17,687 nt of DNA, from the UHGV virus genome UHGV-0085586; one strand, given 5' to 3'. The first letter of the stretch is position 1. Each line of letters opens with the position of its first letter. A program made the translations under genes and the position numbers. Positions 1 through 10,457 of this stretch are shown here, in pieces. This DNA comes from a virus. The notes beneath the pieces were generated by a model. It saw only the letters and a list, made by a program, of their open reading frames with translations, did not search any database and had not been told where the DNA came from.

Positions 1-1083
1 ATGAAAAAATTAACAGTGGCAATTTCTGCTGTAGCTGCATCAGTACTGATGGCGATGTCTGCTCAGGCAGCTGAAATTTATAATAAAGACAGTAACAAGC
101 TGGATCTGTACGGGAAAGTTAATGCTAAGCACTATTTCTCCTCTAATGATGCAGATGATGGTGATACTACTTATGCCCGTCTTGGCTTCAAAGGTGAAAC
201 CCAAATCAACGATCAACTGACTGGTTTCGGTCAGTGGGAATATGAATTCAAAGGCAACCGCGCTGAATCTCAAGGTTCCTCCAAAGATAAAACCCGTCTT
301 GCCTTCGCTGGCCTGAAATTCGGTGACTACGGCTCAATCGATTACGGCCGTAACTACGGTGTAGCATACGACATCGGTGCGTGGACTGACGTTCTGCCAG
401 AATTCGGTGGCGATACCTGGACCCAAACAGATGTGTTCATGACTGGTCGCACCACTGGTGTTGCAACTTATCGTAACAACGACTTCTTTGGTCTGGTTGA
501 TGGTCTGAACTTTGCTGCTCAGTATCAGGGTAAAAATGACCGCACTGACGTAACTGAAGCTAATGGTGATGGTTTCGGTTTCTCCACTACTTATGAGTAT
601 GAAGGATTCGGTGTAGGTGCAACCTATGCTAAATCTGACCGCACTAATAATCAGGTTATCTACGGTAACAACAGCCTGAATGCATCTGGTCAAAATGCTG
701 AAGTATGGGCAGCTGGTCTGAAATATGATGCGAACAACATCTATCTGGCTACCACCTATTCTGAAACCCAGAACATGACTGTTTTTGGTAATAACCATAT
801 TGCCAACAAAGCACAAAACTTCGAAGTAGTTGCACAATATCAGTTCGACTTCGGTCTGCGTCCGTCCGTTGCTTACCTGCAATCTAAAGGAAAAGACTTG
901 GGTGCGTGGGGTGATCAGGACCTGGTTGAATATATTGATGTAGGTGCAACCTATTACTTCAACAAAAATATGTCCACTTTTGTTGATTACAAAATCAACC
1001 TGATTGATAAGAGCGATTTCACGAAAGCATCTGGCGTTGCTACCGATGATATCGTTGCTGTAGGTATGGTTTACCAGTTCTAA
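1..1083 (+). CDS. nmpC: General diffusion porin (OmpC/OmpF/PhoE family), prophage-encoded NmpC/Lc-type
   Basis: 360 aa ORF from ATG at 1 to TAA at 1081-1083. N-terminal signal peptide [23 protein letters not shown] followed by AEIYNKD; Gly/Tyr/Asp-rich beta-barrel composition; C-terminal aromatic residue (...VGMVYQF). Matches my recollection of NmpC/Lc porins, which sit next to Q in DLP12/PA-2-type prophages. Symbol is by recollection, not search. Confidence 0.85.
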
Positions 1084-2713: not shown

Positions 2714-2971
2714 TCACGCAGTAAACTCCTTCACCAGTATTTCAAACTGGCTTACCTGTCCTTCCAGTTCCTCCACGCAATCCACCAGCTCATCCACCGC
2801 CTTTTGTGTACGGTGTTTTGCCTGCAGCAGATCACGAAGCGCCGGAGTAAGCTGCTTGCGGAGCGTATCTTTTGCCACGCTCGTTTTTTCCATCTGTTCA
2901 GCACAACGAAGCATCTCCTGCGCCTGCCGACGAAGTTGTTCCGGTGAAACAGTGGTTGTTCTGTTGTTCAA
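2714..2971 (-). CDS. Hypothetical small coiled-coil protein (85 aa)
   Basis: ORF opens with TTG at 2971 overlapping the helicase stop (tTGa); GGAG lies 8 nt upstream. Charged, helical composition. Start codon uncertain (internal ATGs exist). Confidence 0.45.
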   Translation of the reverse strand: MNNRTTTVSPEQLRRQAQEMLRCAEQMEKTSVAKDTLRKQLTPALRDLLQAKHRTQKAVDELVDCVEELEGQVSQFEILVKEFTA

Positions 2972-4368
2972 AATAAACGCTCCATTTTACTGCCCGACAT
3001 GCGGTTATTGCTGTATCTGCGCGGATTGCCCGGCGTCATGGGTGTGGAAAGAACCCGGGCACTCTCCTGGTCCACAGGCAGAAAATGTCCGTTATGAAAA
3101 CGCCGGTAAATGGTCCCGAGCGTGCCATTACGCTGTTTCGTGATGTTGATTTCTGCTATGCCTCTGGCCTGAGTTTCCGGGTTGTATACCTCATCCCTGT
3201 AAAGCATCAGAATGATGTCGGCATCCGCCTCGATTTCCCCGGAGTTTTTCAGGTCCGAGTTCATTGGGCGTTTATTGGGTCTGGATTCCACGCCGCGGGA
3301 GAGCTGGCTCAGAGCAATCAGCGGAAAACCGCCGGATTTTGCCAGGCTTTTAAGTCCCTTTGAGATTTCCCCCACCGCAAGGTCGTGACGCCCCGTGCTG
3401 CGGGTTTTAATCAGGCCGAGGTAATCGACCACCACCAGCGCCGTTTCCGGGTGTTTCATCCGGTGGTGCTTCGTGGTTGCACATATCTCATCAATGGTCA
3501 GGTTTGCCTGGTCCACCATCCAGATATTACGCCCCGTCATTCGTCCCACGCCCTGCGAGAAACGCGCCCAGTCTTCATCTTCAAAACGGGCAACAGACTT
3601 AAGACGGGATACCGGCATTCCACCGGCAGCAGACACCATACGTTCACCAATCTGGATGTTCGCCATCTCCATGGTGAACAGAAGCACGCCATGCCCCTGC
3701 TCAGTCACCTTGTCGATGATGTCCAGCGCAAGTTCGGTTTTCCCCATCGAAGGACGGGCGGCAATGAATACCAGGTCTCCGGGCTCCATACCGCCCGTTT
3801 TTGCGTCCAGTTCATCAATACCGGTCATCAGCGCCCTGGATTTCTCCAGTCCCTGATTGCGGCATTCAACACGGTCGACCACTTCCGGAAGGACATCATC
3901 AATGTGAACCGGCTGAATGACGCCCTTTCCGGTCGACAGTGAGGCCATCATGTTCTGCGCATCCTTCAGGGCATCCTCGGCTGCTTCACAGGTATACGCA
4001 TCACGTAAATTCTGTAATGCTTCAGTCAGTGTTTTTTCTGCATCGCGCAGTGCGGCATTGCGCCGTAACGCTGCGACATAGTGCTCCAGTGAAGACTTCA
4101 CCCAGGTTTTGCGTCCGGTGTCGGTAATCACCGGGGCAAGTTCCGGCATCTCATTGCACAGCAGTACGGGGTCAATGACGCCGGATATGCGAGCCTGTCT
4201 GCAAATCCCCGCGTAAATATCCCGGTACTGACGCACAAAAAATACATCCGCCGGAAGTGTGGTCAGAATATCCATCACTTCCGGATCGGCCCCACGCAGA
4301 AAAAACGCACCGATGACAGCGCCTTCCAGGTCATCGTTACGCCATGCCGGGGTGTTCTGGCTGGTCAT
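2968..4368 (-). CDS. DnaB-family replicative DNA helicase
   Basis: 466 aa; ATG at 4366-4368 (minus) preceded by GGAGGTG. RecA-like C-terminal domain with Walker A-like ARPSMGKTELALD and typical DnaB motifs (GIDELD...GGMEPGDLV..., LSQLSRGVESR). Confidence 0.9.
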   Translation of the reverse strand: MTSQNTPAWRNDDLEGAVIGAFFLRGADPEVMDILTTLPADVFFVRQYRDIYAGICRQARISGVIDPVLLCNEMPELAPVITDTGRKTWVKSSLEHYVAALRRNAALRDAEKTLTEALQNLRDAYTCEAAEDALKDAQNMMASLSTGKGVIQPVHIDDVLPEVVDRVECRNQGLEKSRALMTGIDELDAKTGGMEPGDLVFIAARPSMGKTELALDIIDKVTEQGHGVLLFTMEMANIQIGERMVSAAGGMPVSRLKSVARFEDEDWARFSQGVGRMTGRNIWMVDQANLTIDEICATTKHHRMKHPETALVVVDYLGLIKTRSTGRHDLAVGEISKGLKSLAKSGGFPLIALSQLSRGVESRPNKRPMNSDLKNSGEIEADADIILMLYRDEVYNPETQARGIAEINITKQRNGTLGTIYRRFHNGHFLPVDQESARVLSTPMTPGNPRRYSNNRMSGSKMERLF

Positions 4369-5264
4369 GCGGCAACACCTCCGATACGAGAACGGTAGCT
4401 GGGCCAGTTAAACGACAACCAGTTGCGCCCGCCATCGGTGATCCTGTCGGCAATCCGGGGACTGATGAACGCCCACAATTCTTCCGGTGAAAGGTTGCTG
4501 ATCAGGATAGTTGGCAAAATACCCTCATACCGGGCATTGATAATTTCCTGCAAAATGGCCATTTCAGCCGCACTGCCAAACTGAACGCCGACTTCGTCGA
4601 CAATCAGCAAATCCAGTGACGCATAATGCTCAATGACGTCATCCGCTGTTTTTTCACTGTCATTCCGCCAGCAGTTTTTCACAGCCCGGGTAAGGCGCAT
4701 CACGTCGGTGATCTCCACACTGGCCAGATAGTTACGGATGATGTGTTTTGCCATTGATACCGCCAGATGATTTTTCCCGGTACCGCAACTGCCGGTCATA
4801 ACAAGACTGGTACCGTTCTCCAGCATATCTGGCCAGTTCTCCGCATAGCGGCGACAGGCCGCAAGATTTCTGGCTGCGTCAGGATTAACCTCCAGATAAT
4901 TATCAAACTCGCAGTCCCGAAAACGCAGAGCAATTCCGGCGTTATCAGTCAGTTCTTCCGCCTTGAGGGACGACAGTTCCATGGTCAAATCACTGGCCTC
5001 AGCGATCAAGCAGTCAGGGCAGCATGAAATTTTTTCTCTGTCCTCGCCATTACGATCGATCCACACCAGTATATGCGTACGATATTTACCGTGTTTTTCG
5101 CAATATCCGCGACCTTCACGCATCAGGCAGGAACGATAAGGCCATGGCTTTTCGCCCTTCTGAGCAAATGCAATCTCTGCCCGTAACTCATCCATTTCTG
5201 CCCGTAACTCATCCATTCGCGCCTGTAGTCTTGTTTGTTTCTCACGTTGGTCAATCGTCATCAT
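4365..5264 (-). CDS. DnaC/IstB-like AAA+ helicase loader (P-like replication protein) with N-terminal coiled-coil/Cys motif region
   Basis: Walker A GSCGTGKNHLAVSMA and Walker B DLLIVDEVG. Start set at ATG 5262-5264, 6 nt after GAGGTG; the track ORF begins at GTG 5273. Stop overlaps the helicase start (ATGA). Confidence 0.85.
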   Translation of the reverse strand: MMTIDQREKQTRLQARMDELRAEMDELRAEIAFAQKGEKPWPYRSCLMREGRGYCEKHGKYRTHILVWIDRNGEDREKISCCPDCLIAEASDLTMELSSLKAEELTDNAGIALRFRDCEFDNYLEVNPDAARNLAACRRYAENWPDMLENGTSLVMTGSCGTGKNHLAVSMAKHIIRNYLASVEITDVMRLTRAVKNCWRNDSEKTADDVIEHYASLDLLIVDEVGVQFGSAAEMAILQEIINARYEGILPTILISNLSPEELWAFISPRIADRITDGGRNWLSFNWPSYRSRIGGVAA

Positions 5265-5274
5265 CGCTGTCACC

Positions 5275-6201
5275 TCAGAATGTCAATTTGTTACTGGATT
5301 TACCGAATTTGTCAGACATGGCTCCCAGGCCAGCCAGGACATCGACCTGTCGCTGTCGCCCACCTCCGTGAGCGGCTGGCTGTTGCCAGTAATCTTCGAA
5401 GTGACGATCGGGTCCAAAGAACGTCGCAGCCTGCTTCACGAACTGTGTGCCGGTATTTCCTGTAGCACGTACCCAGGCGGCATACCGCTTCACGCCATCA
5501 AGCATGGTCTCCGGTTTTATTCCCTCCCTGATACGGGCTTTCCAGGCTTTGAAGGCTGCTGACTTGGAATTGCCACCAGCACGTTTGGGATATTCCTGCC
5601 AGGCCTGTTCAAATTCCGGTGAATATTCCTGTCTGGCAGAACGCGCTGGTGCAGACGCGTCAGCGGATGCGCCAATATCTTGCGGTTCATGTTTTGAATT
5701 TACTGGTGGTTCATGTTTTAAACCTTGTGGATCTGGAGTCAGATTCTGAAGGGTCAAACGCGTATTTTTGCCAGAATCTGAAGGGTCAAACACGCCTGAA
5801 CATACAGATTCTGACGGTTCAGATTTTGAAGGTTCAGAATCTGAAGGGTCACGTAATACTGAAAGTCTGCGCTGCTGTTTCAGTTCTGCAACCTTATCCC
5901 GCTCAGTTCTGGCAAGCTGCTCAAGCCGATCAGCATTCAGATGATAAAGATTGGACGTATTACGGTTACCTTTGCGGCGTGACTGACGCGTCAGCCAGCC
6001 ATCAGCCTCCAGTTCGGAGATTGCCGTTCTGACTGTACTTTCTCCCAATCCAAGCTGTCGACATATGGTTTCAACACCCGGGTAGCACACCCCGTCATCA
6101 TTCGAATAATCAGCCAGGCGCGCCATAATCATCAGTTTTGCACCTTTGACGCCATATGCTGCGCATGCATCCCAGACATTACCGAGGATCTTGCTACTCA
6201 T
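5275..6201 (-). CDS. Replication initiator (lambda O-like) with N-terminal winged-helix domain
   Basis: 308 aa; ATG at 6199-6201 (minus) preceded by GGGAGGTG. N-terminal HTH (...GVCYPGVETICRQLGLGESTVRTAISELEADGWL...). Central repetitive DPSDSEPSKSEPSES segment coincides with the DNA iterons, as for lambda O/ori. Confidence 0.8.
   Translation of the reverse strand: MSSKILGNVWDACAAYGVKGAKLMIMARLADYSNDDGVCYPGVETICRQLGLGESTVRTAISELEADGWLTRQSRRKGNRNTSNLYHLNADRLEQLARTERDKVAELKQQRRLSVLRDPSDSEPSKSEPSESVCSGVFDPSDSGKNTRLTLQNLTPDPQGLKHEPPVNSKHEPQDIGASADASAPARSARQEYSPEFEQAWQEYPKRAGGNSKSAAFKAWKARIREGIKPETMLDGVKRYAAWVRATGNTGTQFVKQAATFFGPDRHFEDYWQQPAAHGGGRQRQVDVLAGLGAMSDKFGKSSNKLTF
5684..5853. repeat. Candidate phage replication origin: five iterons plus a flanking duplicated AT-rich motif, inside the initiator gene
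   Basis: Iterons AGAWTYTGAMGGKTC at 5741-5760, 5774-5795, 5806-5820, 5821-5837 and 5836-5850; duplicated ggttcatgtttt at 5684-5695 and 5708-5719. Confidence 0.6.
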
Positions 6202-6422
6202 ACGACACCTCCCAGACGCTTAAACATTTTTCCGGACTGAAACGCCACCAGCGGGTAACTCAGGGTATAAGTACGCCCCTGCACCTGGCAGACAACCTTC
6301 TGACTTTCTGCATTGACCAGGCAAACCCGCAGAACGAGGCCGTTGCTGGTGGTAAACCACTGCCCCACTCGGGGGCAACGGTTGTATCGGTGATACAGGA
6401 AATTAACGATGTGGCGGATCAT
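6198..6422 (-). CDS. Hypothetical small protein (74 aa)
   Basis: ATG at 6420-6422 (minus) preceded by GGAGGTG; stop overlaps the initiator start (ATGA coupling). Sits in the cII-equivalent position; no recognisable motif. Confidence 0.6.
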   Translation of the reverse strand: MIRHIVNFLYHRYNRCPRVGQWFTTSNGLVLRVCLVNAESQKVVCQVQGRTYTLSYPLVAFQSGKMFKRLGGVV

Positions 6423-6613
6423 GGACGCACCTCCGCCGTAGTTACGTATTTAACCGGGCTACCTTTCATTGAGATGGTTTCACACATCTCTGCCGCTTTC
6501 AGTTCCGCTGTTTTTCTGGATTTATAGCGACGGTGCCAGACAGATACATCCGTGCGAACTGATACATCGTTTCTGTATTCCGTAGTGGAGATGATGATTT
6601 CGTAACTAATCAT
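6419..6613 (-). CDS. Hypothetical small protein (64 aa)
   Basis: ATG at 6611-6613 (minus) preceded by AGGAGG at 7 nt; ATGA overlaps with both neighbours. Confidence 0.55.
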   Translation of the reverse strand: MISYEIIISTTEYRNDVSVRTDVSVWHRRYKSRKTAELKAAEMCETISMKGSPVKYVTTAEVRP

Positions 6614-7173
6614 GGGCGAACCTCCTTGTCAGAACCATTCAGCCTGGAATCAACAAGTGCAGCGCCAAAAACAGCATCACCAACACGGTCGTACAGTTTG
6701 CTAGCCAGCGGAGATTCAACGGCCTTAAGCATTGGATAAAGCTGGCTTGTCCAGATTTGATGGATTTCACGCAAATGCAGGTATACGCCTCTGGCGTTTC
6801 GTGCGACAGCTGACATATCAGACGCATCGGCACCTGATAAACTCTTCTCCATCAGGTTAAAGGCGTTGATGTATGCCTCTTTGAACCGGGCAGCACGTTT
6901 ACCCGTGAAACCCATAGCAAGAAATGCAAAACCGTCTCGTGTGATTTGATAGCAAGGGAGCTTGCGTGTACCACCGTTCGGTTGATTTACCGAAATCGAT
7001 GTCTCCGCAAAATTGCGGGCACAAAACTCAGGGGAACAATCCAGAGTGCGGATCTTTTTCAGCACATCGTCGTGACGCTTGGAGAAGAAGTTGGCAACAG
7101 CCAAAGAAGTGGTAACGGCCTGGCCGTTGTCAATGGTGATTTCAGGTTGAGTGAGGGCTGGGATCGTAGCCAT
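6610..7173 (-). CDS. Rha-family phage regulatory protein (antirepressor-like), copy 3
   Basis: 187 aa from internal ATG at 7171-7173, 8 nt after GGAGG. Rha-type signature begins here (NGQAVTTSLAVANFFSKRHDDVLKKIR...YQITRDGFAFLAMGFTGKRAARFKEAYINAFNLME). The track ORF extends to 7470 through the leader; see findings. Confidence 0.75.
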   Translation of the reverse strand: MATIPALTQPEITIDNGQAVTTSLAVANFFSKRHDDVLKKIRTLDCSPEFCARNFAETSISVNQPNGGTRKLPCYQITRDGFAFLAMGFTGKRAARFKEAYINAFNLMEKSLSGADASDMSAVARNARGVYLHLREIHQIWTSQLYPMLKAVESPLASKLYDRVGDAVFGAALVDSRLNGSDKEVRP

Positions 7174-7470
7174 GATGGCAGCCTCCGTTGACAGTGAAAA
7201 ACTTCCACCACCGGAAACGCCAATTCCACTGGTGGTGAACTGGACGGGGTTGGCGTAACCGGCGTCAACGGAGACCGGCGCACCTTTCGGTGCCCCCGCC
7301 CAGCCCACCATAATCTGGATGTGAGCAAATGCGGACGATAAAAAAGACGCTGGCGCGTCATACATCGCCGTTGACAATTTCAGGACGCCAATCCCGGCAC
7401 CCGCTTTATAAGGTGCCTGAGCAGTGTAACGTCCCGAAATTGCAGAATCAATATGCTGGTGGCGGATCAT
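7174..7470 (-). promoter_or_regulatory. Structured leader copy A (c4-like tripartite RNA element: promoter-like site, terminator hairpin, GNRA hairpin, anti-SD, SD)
   Basis: Minus-strand TTGATT-17-TACACT (plus 7446-7451 / 7423-7428); hairpin gacgcGCCAgcgtc + U6 (plus 7340-7359); GAAA-loop hairpin (7280-7293); GUCAACGG at 7368-7377 and at the SD (7183-7192); complementary CCGUUGAC at 7262-7271. Confidence 0.6.
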
Positions 7471-7829
7471 AGGTGCACCTCCCGTTGATTACGACGGAAC
7501 GCGGAGTGACCCTGGACGGTTTCAGCCTCATGGAATGCTTCAATACAGCTCTCGTAGTACCGCATTGTGCGCAGACTTAACCCAAGCTGAAGCATCATCA
7601 GACCATCAAGGGTGATGTAATAACCACGCAGGGAGTCACCGTAGATGTGATAAGTACCCGGTATGAAATTGCGGGTAAAAAACTCGCGTGAGCAGTTCAG
7701 ATACTCGATTTTGTCAACGATGTTCTGGTGCATGCGCTTGAAATGGCAGGCAACATGCAGGGAGAAAATAACGGCCTTGCCGTTGACGACTTCGATTTTT
7801 AGGAATGGGGAAGTTAGGACAGTAGCCAT
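7467..7829 (-). CDS. Rha-family phage regulatory protein (short, antirepressor-like), copy 2
   Basis: 120 aa from internal ATG at 7827-7829 preceded by the same ACGGAGGCTGCCATC-ATG context as copy 3. Rha-like block (...GKAVIFSLHVACHFKRMHQNIVDKI...YYITLDGLMMLQLG...). Stop overlaps the leader-A ATG at 7470. Confidence 0.7.
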   Translation of the reverse strand: MATVLTSPFLKIEVVNGKAVIFSLHVACHFKRMHQNIVDKIEYLNCSREFFTRNFIPGTYHIYGDSLRGYYITLDGLMMLQLGLSLRTMRYYESCIEAFHEAETVQGHSAFRRNQREVHL

Positions 7830-8129
7830 GATGGCAGCCTCCGTATGCAATGGATAACTTCCACCACCGGAGCTGCGAAACTCATGGGTGGTGAACTGAA
7901 CAGGGTTCGCAGTACCGGCGCATACGGAAACCGGCGAGCCTTTCGGCTCCCCTGCCCAGCCCACCATAATTCTGGCGTGCGTGAGCGCGGACGATAAAAA
8001 AGACGCTGGCGCGTCATATATCGCCGTATGCAATTCCGGGCTGCGACCCCCGGCACCCGCTTTATAAGGTGCAGAGACAGTGTAACGTCCCGAAATTGCA
8101 GAATCAATATTTGGTCTTGAAATGATCAT
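7830..8129 (-). promoter_or_regulatory. Structured leader copy B (paralogous to copy A, altered pairing specificity)
   Basis: Same architecture: promoter-like TTGATT-17-TACACT (plus 8102-8107 / 8079-8084), terminator hairpin + U6 (7996-8015), GAAA hairpin (7936-7949). The three elements read GCAUACGG (8024-8031 and 7841-7848) versus CCGUAUGC (7920-7927). Confidence 0.6.
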
Positions 8130-8213
8130 ATAGCTGCTGATATCTTTAGAACTGTTCTTGGATGTTTCGGAGCCGTTTTATGCGAAACAGCTCCCCGTTA
8201 TTGATGTTGAGTG

Positions 8214-8238
8214 AGCCGGGTTACTCCCGGCTTTTTTT
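8214..8238 (+). terminator. Plus-strand-oriented intrinsic terminator-like hairpin between antirepressor genes (orphan)
   Basis: Stem agccggg (8214-8220) / cccggct (8226-8232), loop ttact, followed by T7 on the plus strand (8232-8238). On the minus strand an A-run precedes it, so it is not a minus-strand terminator. A second hairpin lies at 8168-8195. Confidence 0.4.
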
Positions 8239-8945
8239 CACCGCTGCCAACCAATAACCTGAAATAACCCCATTTTCGGGTGATACCAGCGAGTCCCTCG
8301 CGGTTCTGCTTCCTCCATAACCCGATAAAAAGCAGCCATAAACGGTTCCACAGCAACAATTGCGCGACGTGACAACAATCCGTCCGGCGTCATGAACTCA
8401 TGTGTATCTGTAGGAATTTGATAGGCGTTCACCAGATTGCGGCATTTATCATCTGACAAACCGGTTTTTGCTTTCAGTTGGCGATATCCGGCATAGCCCT
8501 CACGAATAGTGCCCTTTTTAATTTGCTCGACTGTTTCAGCAACGTGGCTGACTTTTTCTTCCACCTGAGTGATCCGTTTCTGTTGGCGAACGGCTTCAAG
8601 AGCCATCGCGGCAACCATTTCGATTTCGCTCATTGGCTTACGGATCTGTTCTTCCAGTTCGCGCCAGCGATCTACCAGGCGAGCTGTGAATTCAGGACAG
8701 AGCTGTGCGACGACAATGATGCTGTCGCGCTTACCTTGTTCACCTTCGAATACATACGCGCTAGAAAATCGGCGAGGCCCAAGTGATTGTTTATTCTCAA
8801 TTTCCACAGTCTGTGGAAATTGGATGATTCCCTTTTTAGCCAGTGTTTCAATAGTTCTCTTAACACTATCTGGTCGGCTTCCCACCAGCTCTGCGATCTC
8901 AACGCTGGTCATGGATGCTTTGCCGTTAAAAATTGCGGTGTTCAT
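8238..8945 (-). CDS. Phage regulatory protein, Rha/antirepressor family with C-terminal extension, copy 1
   Basis: 235 aa; ATG at 8943-8945 (minus), 7 nt after AGGAGA. N-terminal MTSVEIAELVGSRPDSVKRTIETL... and ...VVAQLCPEFTARLVDRWRELEEQ resemble phage antirepressor DNA-binding domains. Confidence 0.75.
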   Translation of the reverse strand: MNTAIFNGKASMTSVEIAELVGSRPDSVKRTIETLAKKGIIQFPQTVEIENKQSLGPRRFSSAYVFEGEQGKRDSIIVVAQLCPEFTARLVDRWRELEEQIRKPMSEIEMVAAMALEAVRQQKRITQVEEKVSHVAETVEQIKKGTIREGYAGYRQLKAKTGLSDDKCRNLVNAYQIPTDTHEFMTPDGLLSRRAIVAVEPFMAAFYRVMEEAEPRGTRWYHPKMGLFQVIGWQR

Positions 8946-9186: not shown

Positions 9187-9258
9187 GATACTTTGTTATC
9201 CAACGATGTTAACCACAGGAATCCAAAGTATCAAGAAATTCTGTTACTTTAGTATCAA
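9187..9258. promoter_or_regulatory. OR-like divergent promoter/operator region between the Cro-position gene and the repressor
   Basis: Three copies of A(A/G)GTATCA: 9187-9195 (inverted), 9226-9233, 9251-9258. Palindrome AAGTATCA-N8-TGTTACTT at 9226-9249. Minus-strand pR candidate TTGATA(9229-9234)-17-TAACAT(9206-9211). Confidence 0.45.
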
Positions 9259-9280: not shown

Positions 9281-9937
9281 ATGAAGTCTTTAGGTGAACG
9301 TCTCATCAACGCACGGCAAAAAGCTGGGTTAACACAAGATGCGTTGGCTAAAAAAGCTGGGATCACCAGAGTTGCAATCAGTAAAGCCGAGCAAGGCCTT
9401 ACAAAAAGTTTCAACGGTGACACCCTTTTTAAAGTTGCAGCTGCACTGCGGTGTTCACCGCAGTGGCTTCAGAACGGAGATGAAAAAGATAAGCATTGGG
9501 AAAATAATGTTAAGAGCTGCCCACAGAGAGACACAGCACACTCTTACCCTGTAATTAACTGGGTTCAGGCAGGATTATTCGCAACTTCTGGTGATGACTA
9601 CAACATGTATGATCAGGATAATTGGAGGCATTCTGTAAAATACGCTGGTGAGAGGGGGTTCTGGCTGGAAGTGCACGGAGACTCAATGACTTCGCCCGTA
9701 GGAATAACATTTCCTGAAGGAATGTCGATCCTTGTCAACCCAGATAAAGAAGTTTTTTCAGGGTGTTACGTCATCGCCAGAAAAAAATCCACCAATGAAG
9801 CAACATTCAAAAAATATATTTCTGACATGGGAAAGGCGTTTCTAAAGCCCCTTAATCCACAATATCCAATCATAGAAATGGACAATGATTGCGAAATAGT
9901 AGGTGTTGTGGTTGATGCCAGGTGGGATATTTTCTGA
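9281..9937 (+). CDS. cI-type prophage repressor, HTH-XRE N-domain + S24 (LexA-like) autopeptidase C-domain
   Basis: 218 aa from ATG 9281, after gagaggagaag. HTH (LTQDALAKKAGITRVAISKAEQG); Ala-Gly cleavage site (VQAGLF); Ser nucleophile in GDSM and downstream Lys (ARKKS). The track ORF starts at 9206 in the leader. Confidence 0.9.
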   Translation: MKSLGERLINARQKAGLTQDALAKKAGITRVAISKAEQGLTKSFNGDTLFKVAAALRCSPQWLQNGDEKDKHWENNVKSCPQRDTAHSYPVINWVQAGLFATSGDDYNMYDQDNWRHSVKYAGERGFWLEVHGDSMTSPVGITFPEGMSILVNPDKEVFSGCYVIARKKSTNEATFKKYISDMGKAFLKPLNPQYPIIEMDNDCEIVGVVVDARWDIF

Positions 9938-9964
9938 CCAGACACAAAACACAAAAAGAAACCA

Positions 9965-10036
9965 AAGTATCAAAAATCACTTGCCACACCTTGATACCTT
10001 AGTTACCATAAAACAAAGTTCGTAACTGAGGTATCA
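9965..10036. promoter_or_regulatory. OL-like operator/promoter region downstream of the repressor gene
   Basis: Same motif: aagtatca 9965-9972, inverted ttgatacc 9991-9998, aggtatca 10029-10036, directly upstream of the first early-left gene. Confidence 0.4.
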
Positions 10037-10040
10037 TCTC

Positions 10041-10457
10041 ATGATCAATAAAGCTACAACTCTTGACTGTCTCGAAGAACTGAAAAACCTCGGCAGCCTC
10101 ATTACACTAATAGCAAAAGCAACACCTGATGCTACGCTCTCTAGCGATATAGAGTCATGCGCAGGACTGGCATGGGATATGACAAATAGCATATCCAGAA
10201 AGCTATCGTCAGCAATGCTTTTACAGAATAAAAATTCTGCAATCAACAACCGTCTTCGCACCCAACGCGAAGCCTGCGGCTTAACAACCGCCGAACTCGC
10301 CAGGCTGCTCGATCTCGATGAAGAAATTATCATCCAGTGGGAGAGCGGAGAGTATGAACCAACTATCAGTATGCTTATCCCACTGGCAAATATTCTTGGC
10401 TGCGATCCGATGTGGCTGTTAACTGGTAAACCAACAGGTGGAGATACTTGCGCATGA
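10041..10457 (+). CDS. Two-domain protein with C-terminal HTH-XRE DNA-binding domain (138 aa)
   Basis: ATG at 10041. C-terminal region NNRLRTQREACGLTTAELARLLDLDEEIIIQWESGEYEPTISMLIPLANILGCDPMWLLTG is a canonical XRE HTH; N-terminal ~65 aa helical, unknown. First gene after the OL-like site. Confidence 0.7.
   Translation: MINKATTLDCLEELKNLGSLITLIAKATPDATLSSDIESCAGLAWDMTNSISRKLSSAMLLQNKNSAINNRLRTQREACGLTTAELARLLDLDEEIIIQWESGEYEPTISMLIPLANILGCDPMWLLTGKPTGGDTCA

Follow-up and report, generated by a model that had tools for sequence, protein, structure and literature searches.

What controls the three regulator genes that lie between cro and the replication genes of a lambdoid prophage, and what do they control in their turn? 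The question is posed by the virus genome UHGV-0085586, of which we analyzed a stretch of 17,687 nucleotides (nt; hereafter, the window). Here, three consecutive open reading frames (ORFs) of 235, 120, and 187 amino acids (aa) directly follow the gene in the Cro position, with exactly the sizes and the order reported in a first-pass annotation. In that annotation, all three were taken for paralogous antirepressors in the place of lambda cII, the last two behind structured leaders of their own, which suggested a layered induction circuit. Rfam matches identify each of these leaders as a copy of an antisense-RNA switch already known from phages, IsrK plus C4, and thus as a relative of c4 in P1, CI/seqA in P4, and IsrK/STnc1160 in Gifsy-1, a kinship that the annotation missed. 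We consider it likely that the region consists of a Roi/Ant-like gene (235 aa) and two tandem IsrK-C4 antisense-RNA immunity cassettes, each with its own promoter-like site, recognition sites, and Rha gene.

The RNA cassettes ahead of the Rha genes

Both leaders contain an isrK match followed, in the same order, by a C4 match, and all four scores (Table 1) exceed the curated Rfam cut-offs, which are 50 bits for isrK (RF01394) and 45 bits for C4 (RF01695); the cut-off of a further model, c4-a1b1, is 46.7 bits. Antisense-RNA immunity cassettes of the C4/CI type correspond to the Rfam clan CL00128. The description of the last two genes as preceded by structured leaders holds up well, given these matches and the stability of both C4 segments relative to shuffled sequences. 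The minimum-energy fold of C4 is the family structure and leaves single-stranded the 12-nt hairpin loop b' and the junction a', the two sites that are complementary both to a1 and b1 within IsrK and to a2 and b2 just upstream of the Rha start. The b2 site of cassette 1 spans the Shine-Dalgarno sequence of the 120-aa gene and that of cassette 2 spans the Shine-Dalgarno sequence of the 187-aa gene; both b2 sites include GGAGG, and each of the two start codons (ATG) is preceded by ACGGAGG. The putative promoter ahead of each IsrK was assigned by alignment with the isrK promoter region of Gifsy-1 rather than by promoter scan, and a pattern search found no cI-operator-like site at either cassette promoter. 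The 235-aa gene has no RNA leader.

The two cassettes are near-identical over 293 nt and differ at a1, b1, a', b', a2, and b2, in the spacer, and at compensated stem positions. Since the a and b sequences of the two cassettes are different, each C4 is expected to act only on its own target. Energies computed for the duplexes at the level of the individual sites, to which this comparison is confined, amount to -21.6 and -23.8 kcal/mol for the cognate b'-b2 pairs vs -13.4 and -15.5 kcal/mol for the crossed ones, and to -14.2 and -15.7 vs -6.7 and -3.7 kcal/mol for a'-a2, so that the cognate pairing has an advantage of about 8 kcal/mol at b and one of 7.5-12 kcal/mol at a2. Computed over the whole RNAs, neither duplex nor cofold energies told cognate from crossed pairs. 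At the level of the sites, the tandem cassettes are apparently orthogonal. The earlier claim of separate RNA-level controls on the last two genes stands and, as the recognition sequences differ, the array can reasonably be read as a layered or hetero-immune design.

Table 1. Positions of the RNA cassettes, genes, and associated sequence features in the window
Feature	Position	Strand	Basis or remark
Cassette 1 promoter-like site, TTGATT-17 nt-TACACT	8079..8107	-	Read from sequence; ends 6 nt before IsrK 5' end
IsrK-1 small RNA (seqA / c4-a1b1-like)	7996..8072	-	Rfam isrK 58.8 bits
IsrK-1 parts: a1 (GUCGCAG), b1 (UGCAUACGG), intrinsic terminator	8047-8041; 8032-8024; 8015-8002 + T6	-	Terminator scan, covariation
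C4-1 antisense RNA	7884..7971	-	Rfam C4 83.3 bits; fold z = -4.6 vs shuffles
C4-1 sites: b' loop (UUUCCGUAUGCG), a' (CUGCGAA)	7930-7919; 7912-7906	-	Unpaired in fold
Cassette 1 targets: a2 (UUCGCAG), b2 (UGCAUACGGAGG)	7879-7873; 7849-7838	-	Duplex energies, covariation
Cassette 2 promoter-like site	7423..7451	-	Identical to that of cassette 1
IsrK-2 small RNA	7340..7416	-	Rfam isrK 62.2 bits
IsrK-2 parts: a1 (UUGGCGU), b1 (UGUCAACGG), terminator	7391-7385; 7376-7368; 7359-7346 + T6	-	Terminator scan
C4-2 antisense RNA	7228..7315	-	Rfam C4 81.4 bits; fold z = -5.1 vs shuffles
C4-2 sites: b' loop (UCUCCGUUGACG), a' (ACGCCAA)	7274-7263; 7256-7250	-	Unpaired in fold
Cassette 2 targets: a2 (UUGGCGU), b2 (UGUCAACGGAGG)	7223-7217; 7193-7182	-	Duplex energies, covariation
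ORF-A, 235 aa, Roi/Ant-like DNA-binding protein	8238..8945	-	Rha-type N-terminal match below cut-off
Rha-short cargo, 120 aa	7467..7829	-	phrog_995, E = 1.6e-55; paralogue of 187-aa protein
Rha cargo, 187 aa	6610..7173	-	N-terminal Rha domain, C-terminal long helical hairpin
Long ORF 1, 220 aa, 'ash family protein'	7467..8129	-	Starts upstream of cassette 1 promoter; Phage_ASH 62.7 bits
Long ORF 2, 286 aa, 'Ash + Rha'	6610..7470	-	Starts upstream of cassette 2 promoter; Phage_ASH 74.9 bits
Junction repeat copy A, GGAGGTGCACCTATGATCCGCCAC	7459..7482	-	Matches copy B at 21/24 positions
Junction repeat copy B	6411..6434	-	With copy A, brackets a segment of ~1,048 bp
Cro-position ORF, 75 aa	8942..9169	-	No Pfam family; phrog_4749 (unknown function)
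Three operator-like sites (GATACnnnnGTATC type)	9187, 9219, 9243 (9187..9256)		Between cI and the Cro-position gene; pattern search
cI-type repressor	9281..9937	+	HTH_3 53.7 bits and peptidase S24 78.5 bits (Pfam); divergent from the array
orf64, orf74, O-like (HTH_36), DnaC-like loader, DnaB helicase	2968..6613	-	Downstream operon; mostly ATGA 4-nt overlaps

Alleles, spread, and turnover of the cassettes

An exact-word scan of viral contigs yielded 120 loci, within which a profile search found 132 cassette matches at 113 loci; 18 of the 113 contain two or more matches, and one of these contains three. Among them are 63 distinct full-length cassettes, with 6 a' and 9 b' alleles that combine in 19 ways; in all 63, a1, a', and a2 match one another, as do b1, b', and b2. 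In the alignment of these cassettes, pairing is found in 97.4% of the cells of the b'-b2 helix (both sides changed in 7/12 pairs), 98.7% of those of the main 5-pair a'-a2 helix (4/5 pairs), 99.8% for b1-b' (7/9 pairs), and 97.3% for a1-a' (5/7 pairs), cell counts that overstate the number of independent events given that the sequences are related. When the partner columns were slid as a control, pairing dropped to only 26-49%. The C4 stem covaries across the same set. The number of distinct pair types per column and the free re-assortment of the a and b alleles nevertheless speak for repeated co-variation. The mean energies of the cognate pairs are -13.5 and -21.6 kcal/mol vs -6.0 and -11.1 kcal/mol for the non-cognate ones.

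The alleles are also replaced between close relatives. Over 9300-6400, the window and the nearest complete E. coli genome, NZ_CP018991, have ~100% identity save at two patches, one of which (8060-7830) is the recognition region of cassette 1, whereas the other (7410-6920) encompasses the recognition region of cassette 2 together with the N-terminal Rha domain; at both, the cassettes of that genome carry alleles different from those in the window. Whole cassettes seem to come and go as well. A 24-nt junction motif, GGAGGTGCnnCnATGATCCGCCAC, brackets ~1,048 bp that comprise cassette 2, the 187-aa gene, and orf64. This segment is absent from E. coli UMNF18, in which the 120-aa gene directly abuts orf74, with the joint located at a similar motif, GGAGGTGCGCCCATGATTCGTCGC. 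The arrangement suggests gain or loss of cassettes by recombination at gene-boundary sequences.

Such a turnover bears on the possibility that immunity in trans is the main selected function, with C4 silencing same-allele cassettes, and hence the replication genes, of incoming or co-resident phages, satellites, or those chromosomal islands that are phage-inducible (PICIs), and the two cassettes of the window representing two specificity classes. The P4 and P1 cassettes are both immunity determinants. The number of alleles and their replacement in near-identical prophages point in the same direction, and so does the wide spread of the cassette family: among 5,426 complete E. coli genomes, ~914 contain it, at as many as 6 places in one genome. 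Furthermore, at 71 of 112 related loci, orf74 and/or the O-like, DnaC-like, or DnaB genes come next on the same strand after the cassette or cassettes, and a role against satellites has been raised by Barquist et al. Of the 16 typed pairs of cassettes within the same locus, 12 have no allele in common, 4 have one, and not a single pair has both, but this sample is too small to carry the argument. We hold primary selection for trans-immunity to be possible but doubtful; it is compatible with, and not exclusive of, the explanation by tandem cassettes.

Single cassettes occur in phiP27, in Shiga toxin (Stx) phages of the Stx1a type, in the Eru7 Stx2a phage LC567818.1, and in UMNF18. Cassette 1 with the 120-aa gene could be viewed as a decaying duplicate, leaving cassette 2 as the only functional one, given that the C-terminal half is missing from the 120-aa protein, which also falls just short of the Rha cut-offs (28.0 bits and E = 3e-6 for Pfam Rha, with a cut-off of 29.9; 37.9 bits for TIGR02681, with a cut-off of 45.95). 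However, the 120-aa cargo is a conserved class, with 29 occurrences in the related loci, is the cargo of the only cassette in both phiP27 and UMNF18, and is preferentially the upstream member of tandem arrays (11/29 vs 3/41). With the RNA sites of cassette 1 being fully matched in addition, decay is very improbable.

Cassettes are, moreover, portable, another point that the annotation missed. Elsewhere, IsrK-C4 precedes unrelated cargo, for example two families of small proteins, of 77 aa (locus L040) and 81 aa (L100), and longer ones of 264 aa (L025) and 196 aa (L099), with the first residues, MAT or MTT, being retained. The longer cargo in L025 shares a sequence stretch with AnrP of Gifsy-1.

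Long frames, cargo proteins, and the early operon

Mechanical ORF calling, as well as the Prokaryotic Genome Annotation Pipeline (PGAP) in near-identical genomes, extends the 120- and 187-aa genes upstream to 220 and 286 aa, respectively. Are these ordinary Ash-Rha proteins, with the RNA matches being incidental? In all 63 cassettes, the reading frame that runs into the cargo is uninterrupted, and the three length differences are all multiples of 3; the start codon of long ORF 2 is served by a good Shine-Dalgarno sequence (GGGAGG) and overlaps the stop codon of the 120-aa gene in ATGA; the Pfam Phage_ASH scores are 63-75 bits; and nearly all database homologues of the 187-aa protein are annotated with the Ash extension. 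Substitutions, however, show no excess at third codon positions: the counts of variable columns by codon position, across the 63 cassettes, are 23/22/21, 7/7/8, 16/15/18, and 12/16/14 in four segments and, therefore, the amino-acid sequence is not what is conserved. Variation is instead confined mainly to mutually complementary patches, the supposed domain contains a promoter-like site as well as an intrinsic terminator, and the same domain is fused to unrelated cargo. In P4 (locus L125, 8168-8705), the Ash profile lies in the old 'cI ORF' and there coincides exactly with the CI RNA gene. We find it hardly credible, then, that the long ORFs are simply protein genes with chance RNA matches.

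In our reading, the Pfam family PF10554 (Ash) is a conceptual translation of isrK/seqA plus C4/CI RNA genes, or of an eta-like frame, and not an independent domain; the PGAP name 'ash family protein' and several PHROGs (3960, 821, 995, 6928, 4908, 29966) have the same origin. The window segments behind the Ash matches are 8129-7830 and 7470-7174. Several of the PHROGs matched by the leader translations have the Ash segment fused to different C-terminal parts. We also considered the P4 epsilon protein, which is sometimes equated with Ash, as an Ash protein and rejected it; epsilon is a member of PF25738, and the part of P4 to which Ash maps is the cI/CI RNA region. The location of CI RNA inside a 'Bro network' gene has already been noted in the literature.

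The open frame itself is, nevertheless, a regular part of the cassette. An in-frame start upstream of the cassette promoter was found in 70 of 70 distinct contexts, 44 of them with a Shine-Dalgarno-like motif, and the AUG at the 5' end of C4, the positional counterpart of the first AUG in Gifsy-1 orf45, shares the cargo frame without exception (46-47 codons). This layout matches the kil/eta logic of P4, in which a constitutive promoter is located within a long ORF (PMC10111431).

The three proteins are less uniform than the first-pass annotation had it. Paralogy holds for the 120- and 187-aa proteins (37% identity, E = 2e-19), not for the 235-aa protein, for which BLASTP against the 187-aa protein gives E = 0.057 and Pfam Rha reaches 25.7 bits (E = 2e-5, under the cut-off of 29.9), with no NCBIfam match. 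Over residues 1-99, this protein shares 62-69% identity with Roi DNA-binding proteins from Stx and lambdoid phages, and its best PHROG is phrog_63, 'anti-repressor Ant' (E = 3e-46). The 187-aa protein is well above the cut-offs, with 95 bits for Pfam Rha and 89 bits for TIGR02681, and its AlphaFold2 model (mean predicted local distance difference test score, pLDDT, 77) combines an alpha/beta domain at the N-terminus with a long helical hairpin at the C-terminus. No solved-structure relatives of the 187- and 235-aa proteins were found, and PADLOC recognized no defense system among six proteins. The array does occupy the place between cro and the replication genes that lambda cII has, but none of the three proteins, including the 235-aa one, matches the cII domain (PF05269). 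A terminator-like hairpin, AACGGCAAGGCCGTT then ATTTTCTCCC, lies at 7784-7770 (minus strand), 45 nt inside the 120-aa coding region, and could work as an attenuator that is sensitive to translation; cassette 2 lacks the T-run at the equivalent position.

Do these proteins act as antirepressors that inactivate the cI-type repressor, with the RNA leaders only tuning their amounts in a layered induction? Precedents exist: in P1, C4 blocks the expression of ant, and Ant binds C1 (PMC8198154), and in Gifsy-1, IsrK in trans activates translation of anrP from the read-through transcript, whereupon AnrP induces the prophage (PMC4825925). The PHROG and GenBank names of relatives also include 'anti-repressor', and it is to such annotation names only that the label of all three proteins goes back. 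However, the profile search that yielded Rha for the 187-aa protein gave no match to ANT, AntA, KilAC, or P22_AR in any of the three at E <= 0.01 in Pfam, and AnrP, an ORF6N protein, is unrelated to the Rha cargo (homology was rejected, E = 2.1). The N-terminal domains of Rha and Roi are DNA-binding winged helices, and the cargo behind the same cassette is very diverse, down to the 77- and 81-aa proteins. The cI-type repressor has its own S24 autocleavage domain, and the first gene of the array escapes RNA control. There is no LexA box in 6610-8945, and the total in the window is at the chance level, so that SOS-controlled antirepressors of the Tum/GfoA/AntC type are not indicated. Three antirepressors acting on cI are, in our estimate, unlikely, and the output of the cassettes may instead be the whole downstream operon.

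The window that contains this operon is a lambdoid prophage, with the integrase gene (16374 to the end), Ead/Ea22 genes, the S24/helix-turn-helix repressor of the cI type (in PGAP, a near-identical homologue is named 'LexA family protein'), and then the leftward early operon, which ends in the O-like gene, the DnaC-like loader, the DnaB helicase, and a DUF968 protein. The stop codon of the Cro-position ORF and the ATG of the 235-aa ORF share 4 nt (ATGA). From 8945 to 2968 on the minus strand, most neighboring genes are likewise joined by ATGA overlaps with GGAGG-type Shine-Dalgarno sites (cro/ORF-A, Rha120/long ORF 2, Rha187/orf64, orf64/orf74, orf74/O-like, and DnaC-like/DnaB), and the long 'Ash' frame of cassette 2 fits this chain of translational coupling. 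A complete gene for a Gram-negative porin (Porin_1, 510 bits; 1-1083, plus strand) adjoins the DUF968/HNH-like gene at the end of the early region and is probably prophage-borne.

Two further elements flank the array. Just downstream of cI, a second trio of operator-like sites (9958, 9993, 10022; region 9958-10035) is followed by a co-directional gene for a 138-aa HTH_3 protein (10041-10457, plus strand); either a second regulator or a region of the OL type may be present here. Opposite the operon strand, near the 108-nt gap between the 235-aa ORF and the first long ORF, the plus-strand segment 8117-8241 contains, in this order, a promoter-like TTGAAA-18-TATCTT with an upstream TG, two hairpins, and a canonical intrinsic terminator (8213-8233 + T7), with a fold z of -3.3 and 98.6-100% identity in 14 other loci. 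The segment could encode a small RNA on the plus strand or serve to halt antisense transcription.

A proposed circuit and its known relatives

By homology with three experimentally studied systems, P1, Gifsy-1, and P4, we propose the following succession of events. In the lysogen, the cassette promoters would fire independently of cI and produce IsrK, and given a leaky IsrK terminator, read-through and processing would give rise to C4. In P1 and P4, the C4/CI RNAs are released by RNase P. By pairing with a2 and b2 on its own read-through transcript, C4 would block translation of the Rha gene, and the loss of translation would probably end transcription early, ahead of orf64, orf74, and the replication genes. 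With the same target sequences, IsrK would compete for C4 as a decoy, such that the ratio of short to read-through transcripts would set a threshold. When transcription arrives from upstream, ribosomes would translate the long in-frame ORF through the whole cassette and override the block, as in the case of P4 eta; in cassette 2, the long frame would be coupled by ATGA to the 120-aa gene. Because translation of the upstream cassette's cargo is coupled to that of the second cassette's long frame, epistasis of the upstream cassette over the downstream one is expected. The replication genes are probably part of the output, given the position of the cassette directly ahead of them, here and at most of the related loci counted above, and the Rha proteins themselves may have a pro-lytic role.

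Several observations weigh against this scheme. The cassette promoters match the consensus at 8 of 12 positions, below the threshold of the promoter scan (9/12), and were, accordingly, not called by it. The folds of IsrK are not unusually stable (z ~ -1), and the c4-a1b1 model matches IsrK-2 weakly, at 22.5 bits, whereas it exceeds its cut-off in Gifsy-1. The ATG of long ORF 1 has no Shine-Dalgarno sequence, which makes translational override doubtful for cassette 1. The crossed b' duplexes still reach -13 to -15 kcal/mol, with a CCG/GGAGG core common to both cassettes, so that orthogonality may be incomplete, and some tandem loci share one of their two alleles. Finally, in Gifsy-1, IsrK has been described as a trans-activator that acts via alternative mRNA structures and not as a simple C4 decoy, and constitutive STnc1160 left toxicity unrelieved (PMC4825925).

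On a broader scale, the E. coli lambdoid and Stx prophages might possess an RNA-only layer of immunity superimposed on cI, with recombining a/b alleles (at least 6 x 9), in which tandem cassettes with non-overlapping alleles, chained by translation to one another and to the replication genes, would form a hierarchical two-key lock on replication and would provide broad trans-immunity against phages, satellites, and PICIs. The replacement of alleles between otherwise identical prophages would then be the trace of an RNA-level arms race. This is a tentative proposition, which we consider conceivable rather than probable. Independently of its fate, the IsrK-C4 identity corrects a widespread annotation in PGAP, Pfam, and PHROGs. 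The predicted cI-independent control of early and replication genes could affect lysogen stability and toxin release. The allele collection represents a natural set of apparently orthogonal RNA-RNA recognition pairs, and near-isogenic prophages that differ almost only in their alleles offer material for tests of RNA-based hetero-immunity. IsrK-C4 systems are already known in P1, P7, N15, P4, and lambdoid Salmonella prophages and, with the type of system being well known, the gain is incremental rather than fundamental; the tandem, apparently orthogonal arrangement is the new element. A literature search of incomplete coverage found no account of tandem cassettes, combinatorial alleles, or allele replacement.

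The known systems resemble the window cassettes in different respects. As in the immI region of P1/P7 (c4 - icd - ant1/2), C4 is probably encoded on the same transcription unit as its target, and a' and b' are predicted to pair with a2 and b2 at the ribosome-binding site of the first downstream ORF. According to Citron and Schuster (1990), P1 and P7 reportedly differ in these sequences and are hetero-immune. The P1 promoter, unlike the cassette promoters of the window, with no cI-operator-like site, is also under the control of C1, and the P1 cargo consists of icd and Ant in place of the Rha-domain genes.

In the immunity region of P4 (PLE - seqA - CI RNA - seqC, with nested kil/eta), Rfam detects the same pair of isrK/c4-a1b1 and C4. 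The stable immunity RNA of P4 is CI, which together with seqA causes early termination, whereas translation of eta, the long ORF read from an upstream promoter, prevents this immunity-dependent termination (PMC10111431). In P4 as in the window, the RNA genes are inside a long ORF that starts upstream of the internal promoter, and the cassette is upstream of replication functions. Unlike P4, a satellite in which the cassette is the primary immunity, the window contains a cI/cro switch, two cassettes, and Rha cargo.

A further correspondence is with isrK - orf45/STnc1160 - anrP of Gifsy-1 (Hershko-Shalev et al. 2016, PMC4825925), where the whole cassette is homologous, from the promoter region to the cargo ATG, including IsrK with its terminator, the C4-like RNA, the a/b sites, and the Shine-Dalgarno sequence and ATG of the cargo; even the a allele (ACGCCAA) is that of window cassette 2. 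Apart from the unrelated cargo, the differences are in number, location, and frame: Gifsy-1 has a single cassette after a Q-like gene, whereas the window has two between cro and the replication genes, and, as read from the alignment, the small ORF that begins at the C4 5' end is in the cargo frame (46 codons) in the window, whereas that of Gifsy-1 is out of frame and stops at the anrP start.

The gene order, finally, is that of the Eru6, Eru7, and Eru9 phages (cI - cro - DNA-binding protein - Rha/Ash - small ORF - O - helicase). These Stx phages have been defined by 'Rha' or 'Rha/Ash' next to cI, with Ash treated as a domain of unknown function, and Eru7 is reported to be the most widespread Stx2a phage type in Europe, found in strains associated with hemolytic uremic syndrome (PMC8951638). 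In the Eru7 representative LC567818.1, it is the 'putative phage regulatory protein' that holds isrK and C4, as a single cassette where the window has two.

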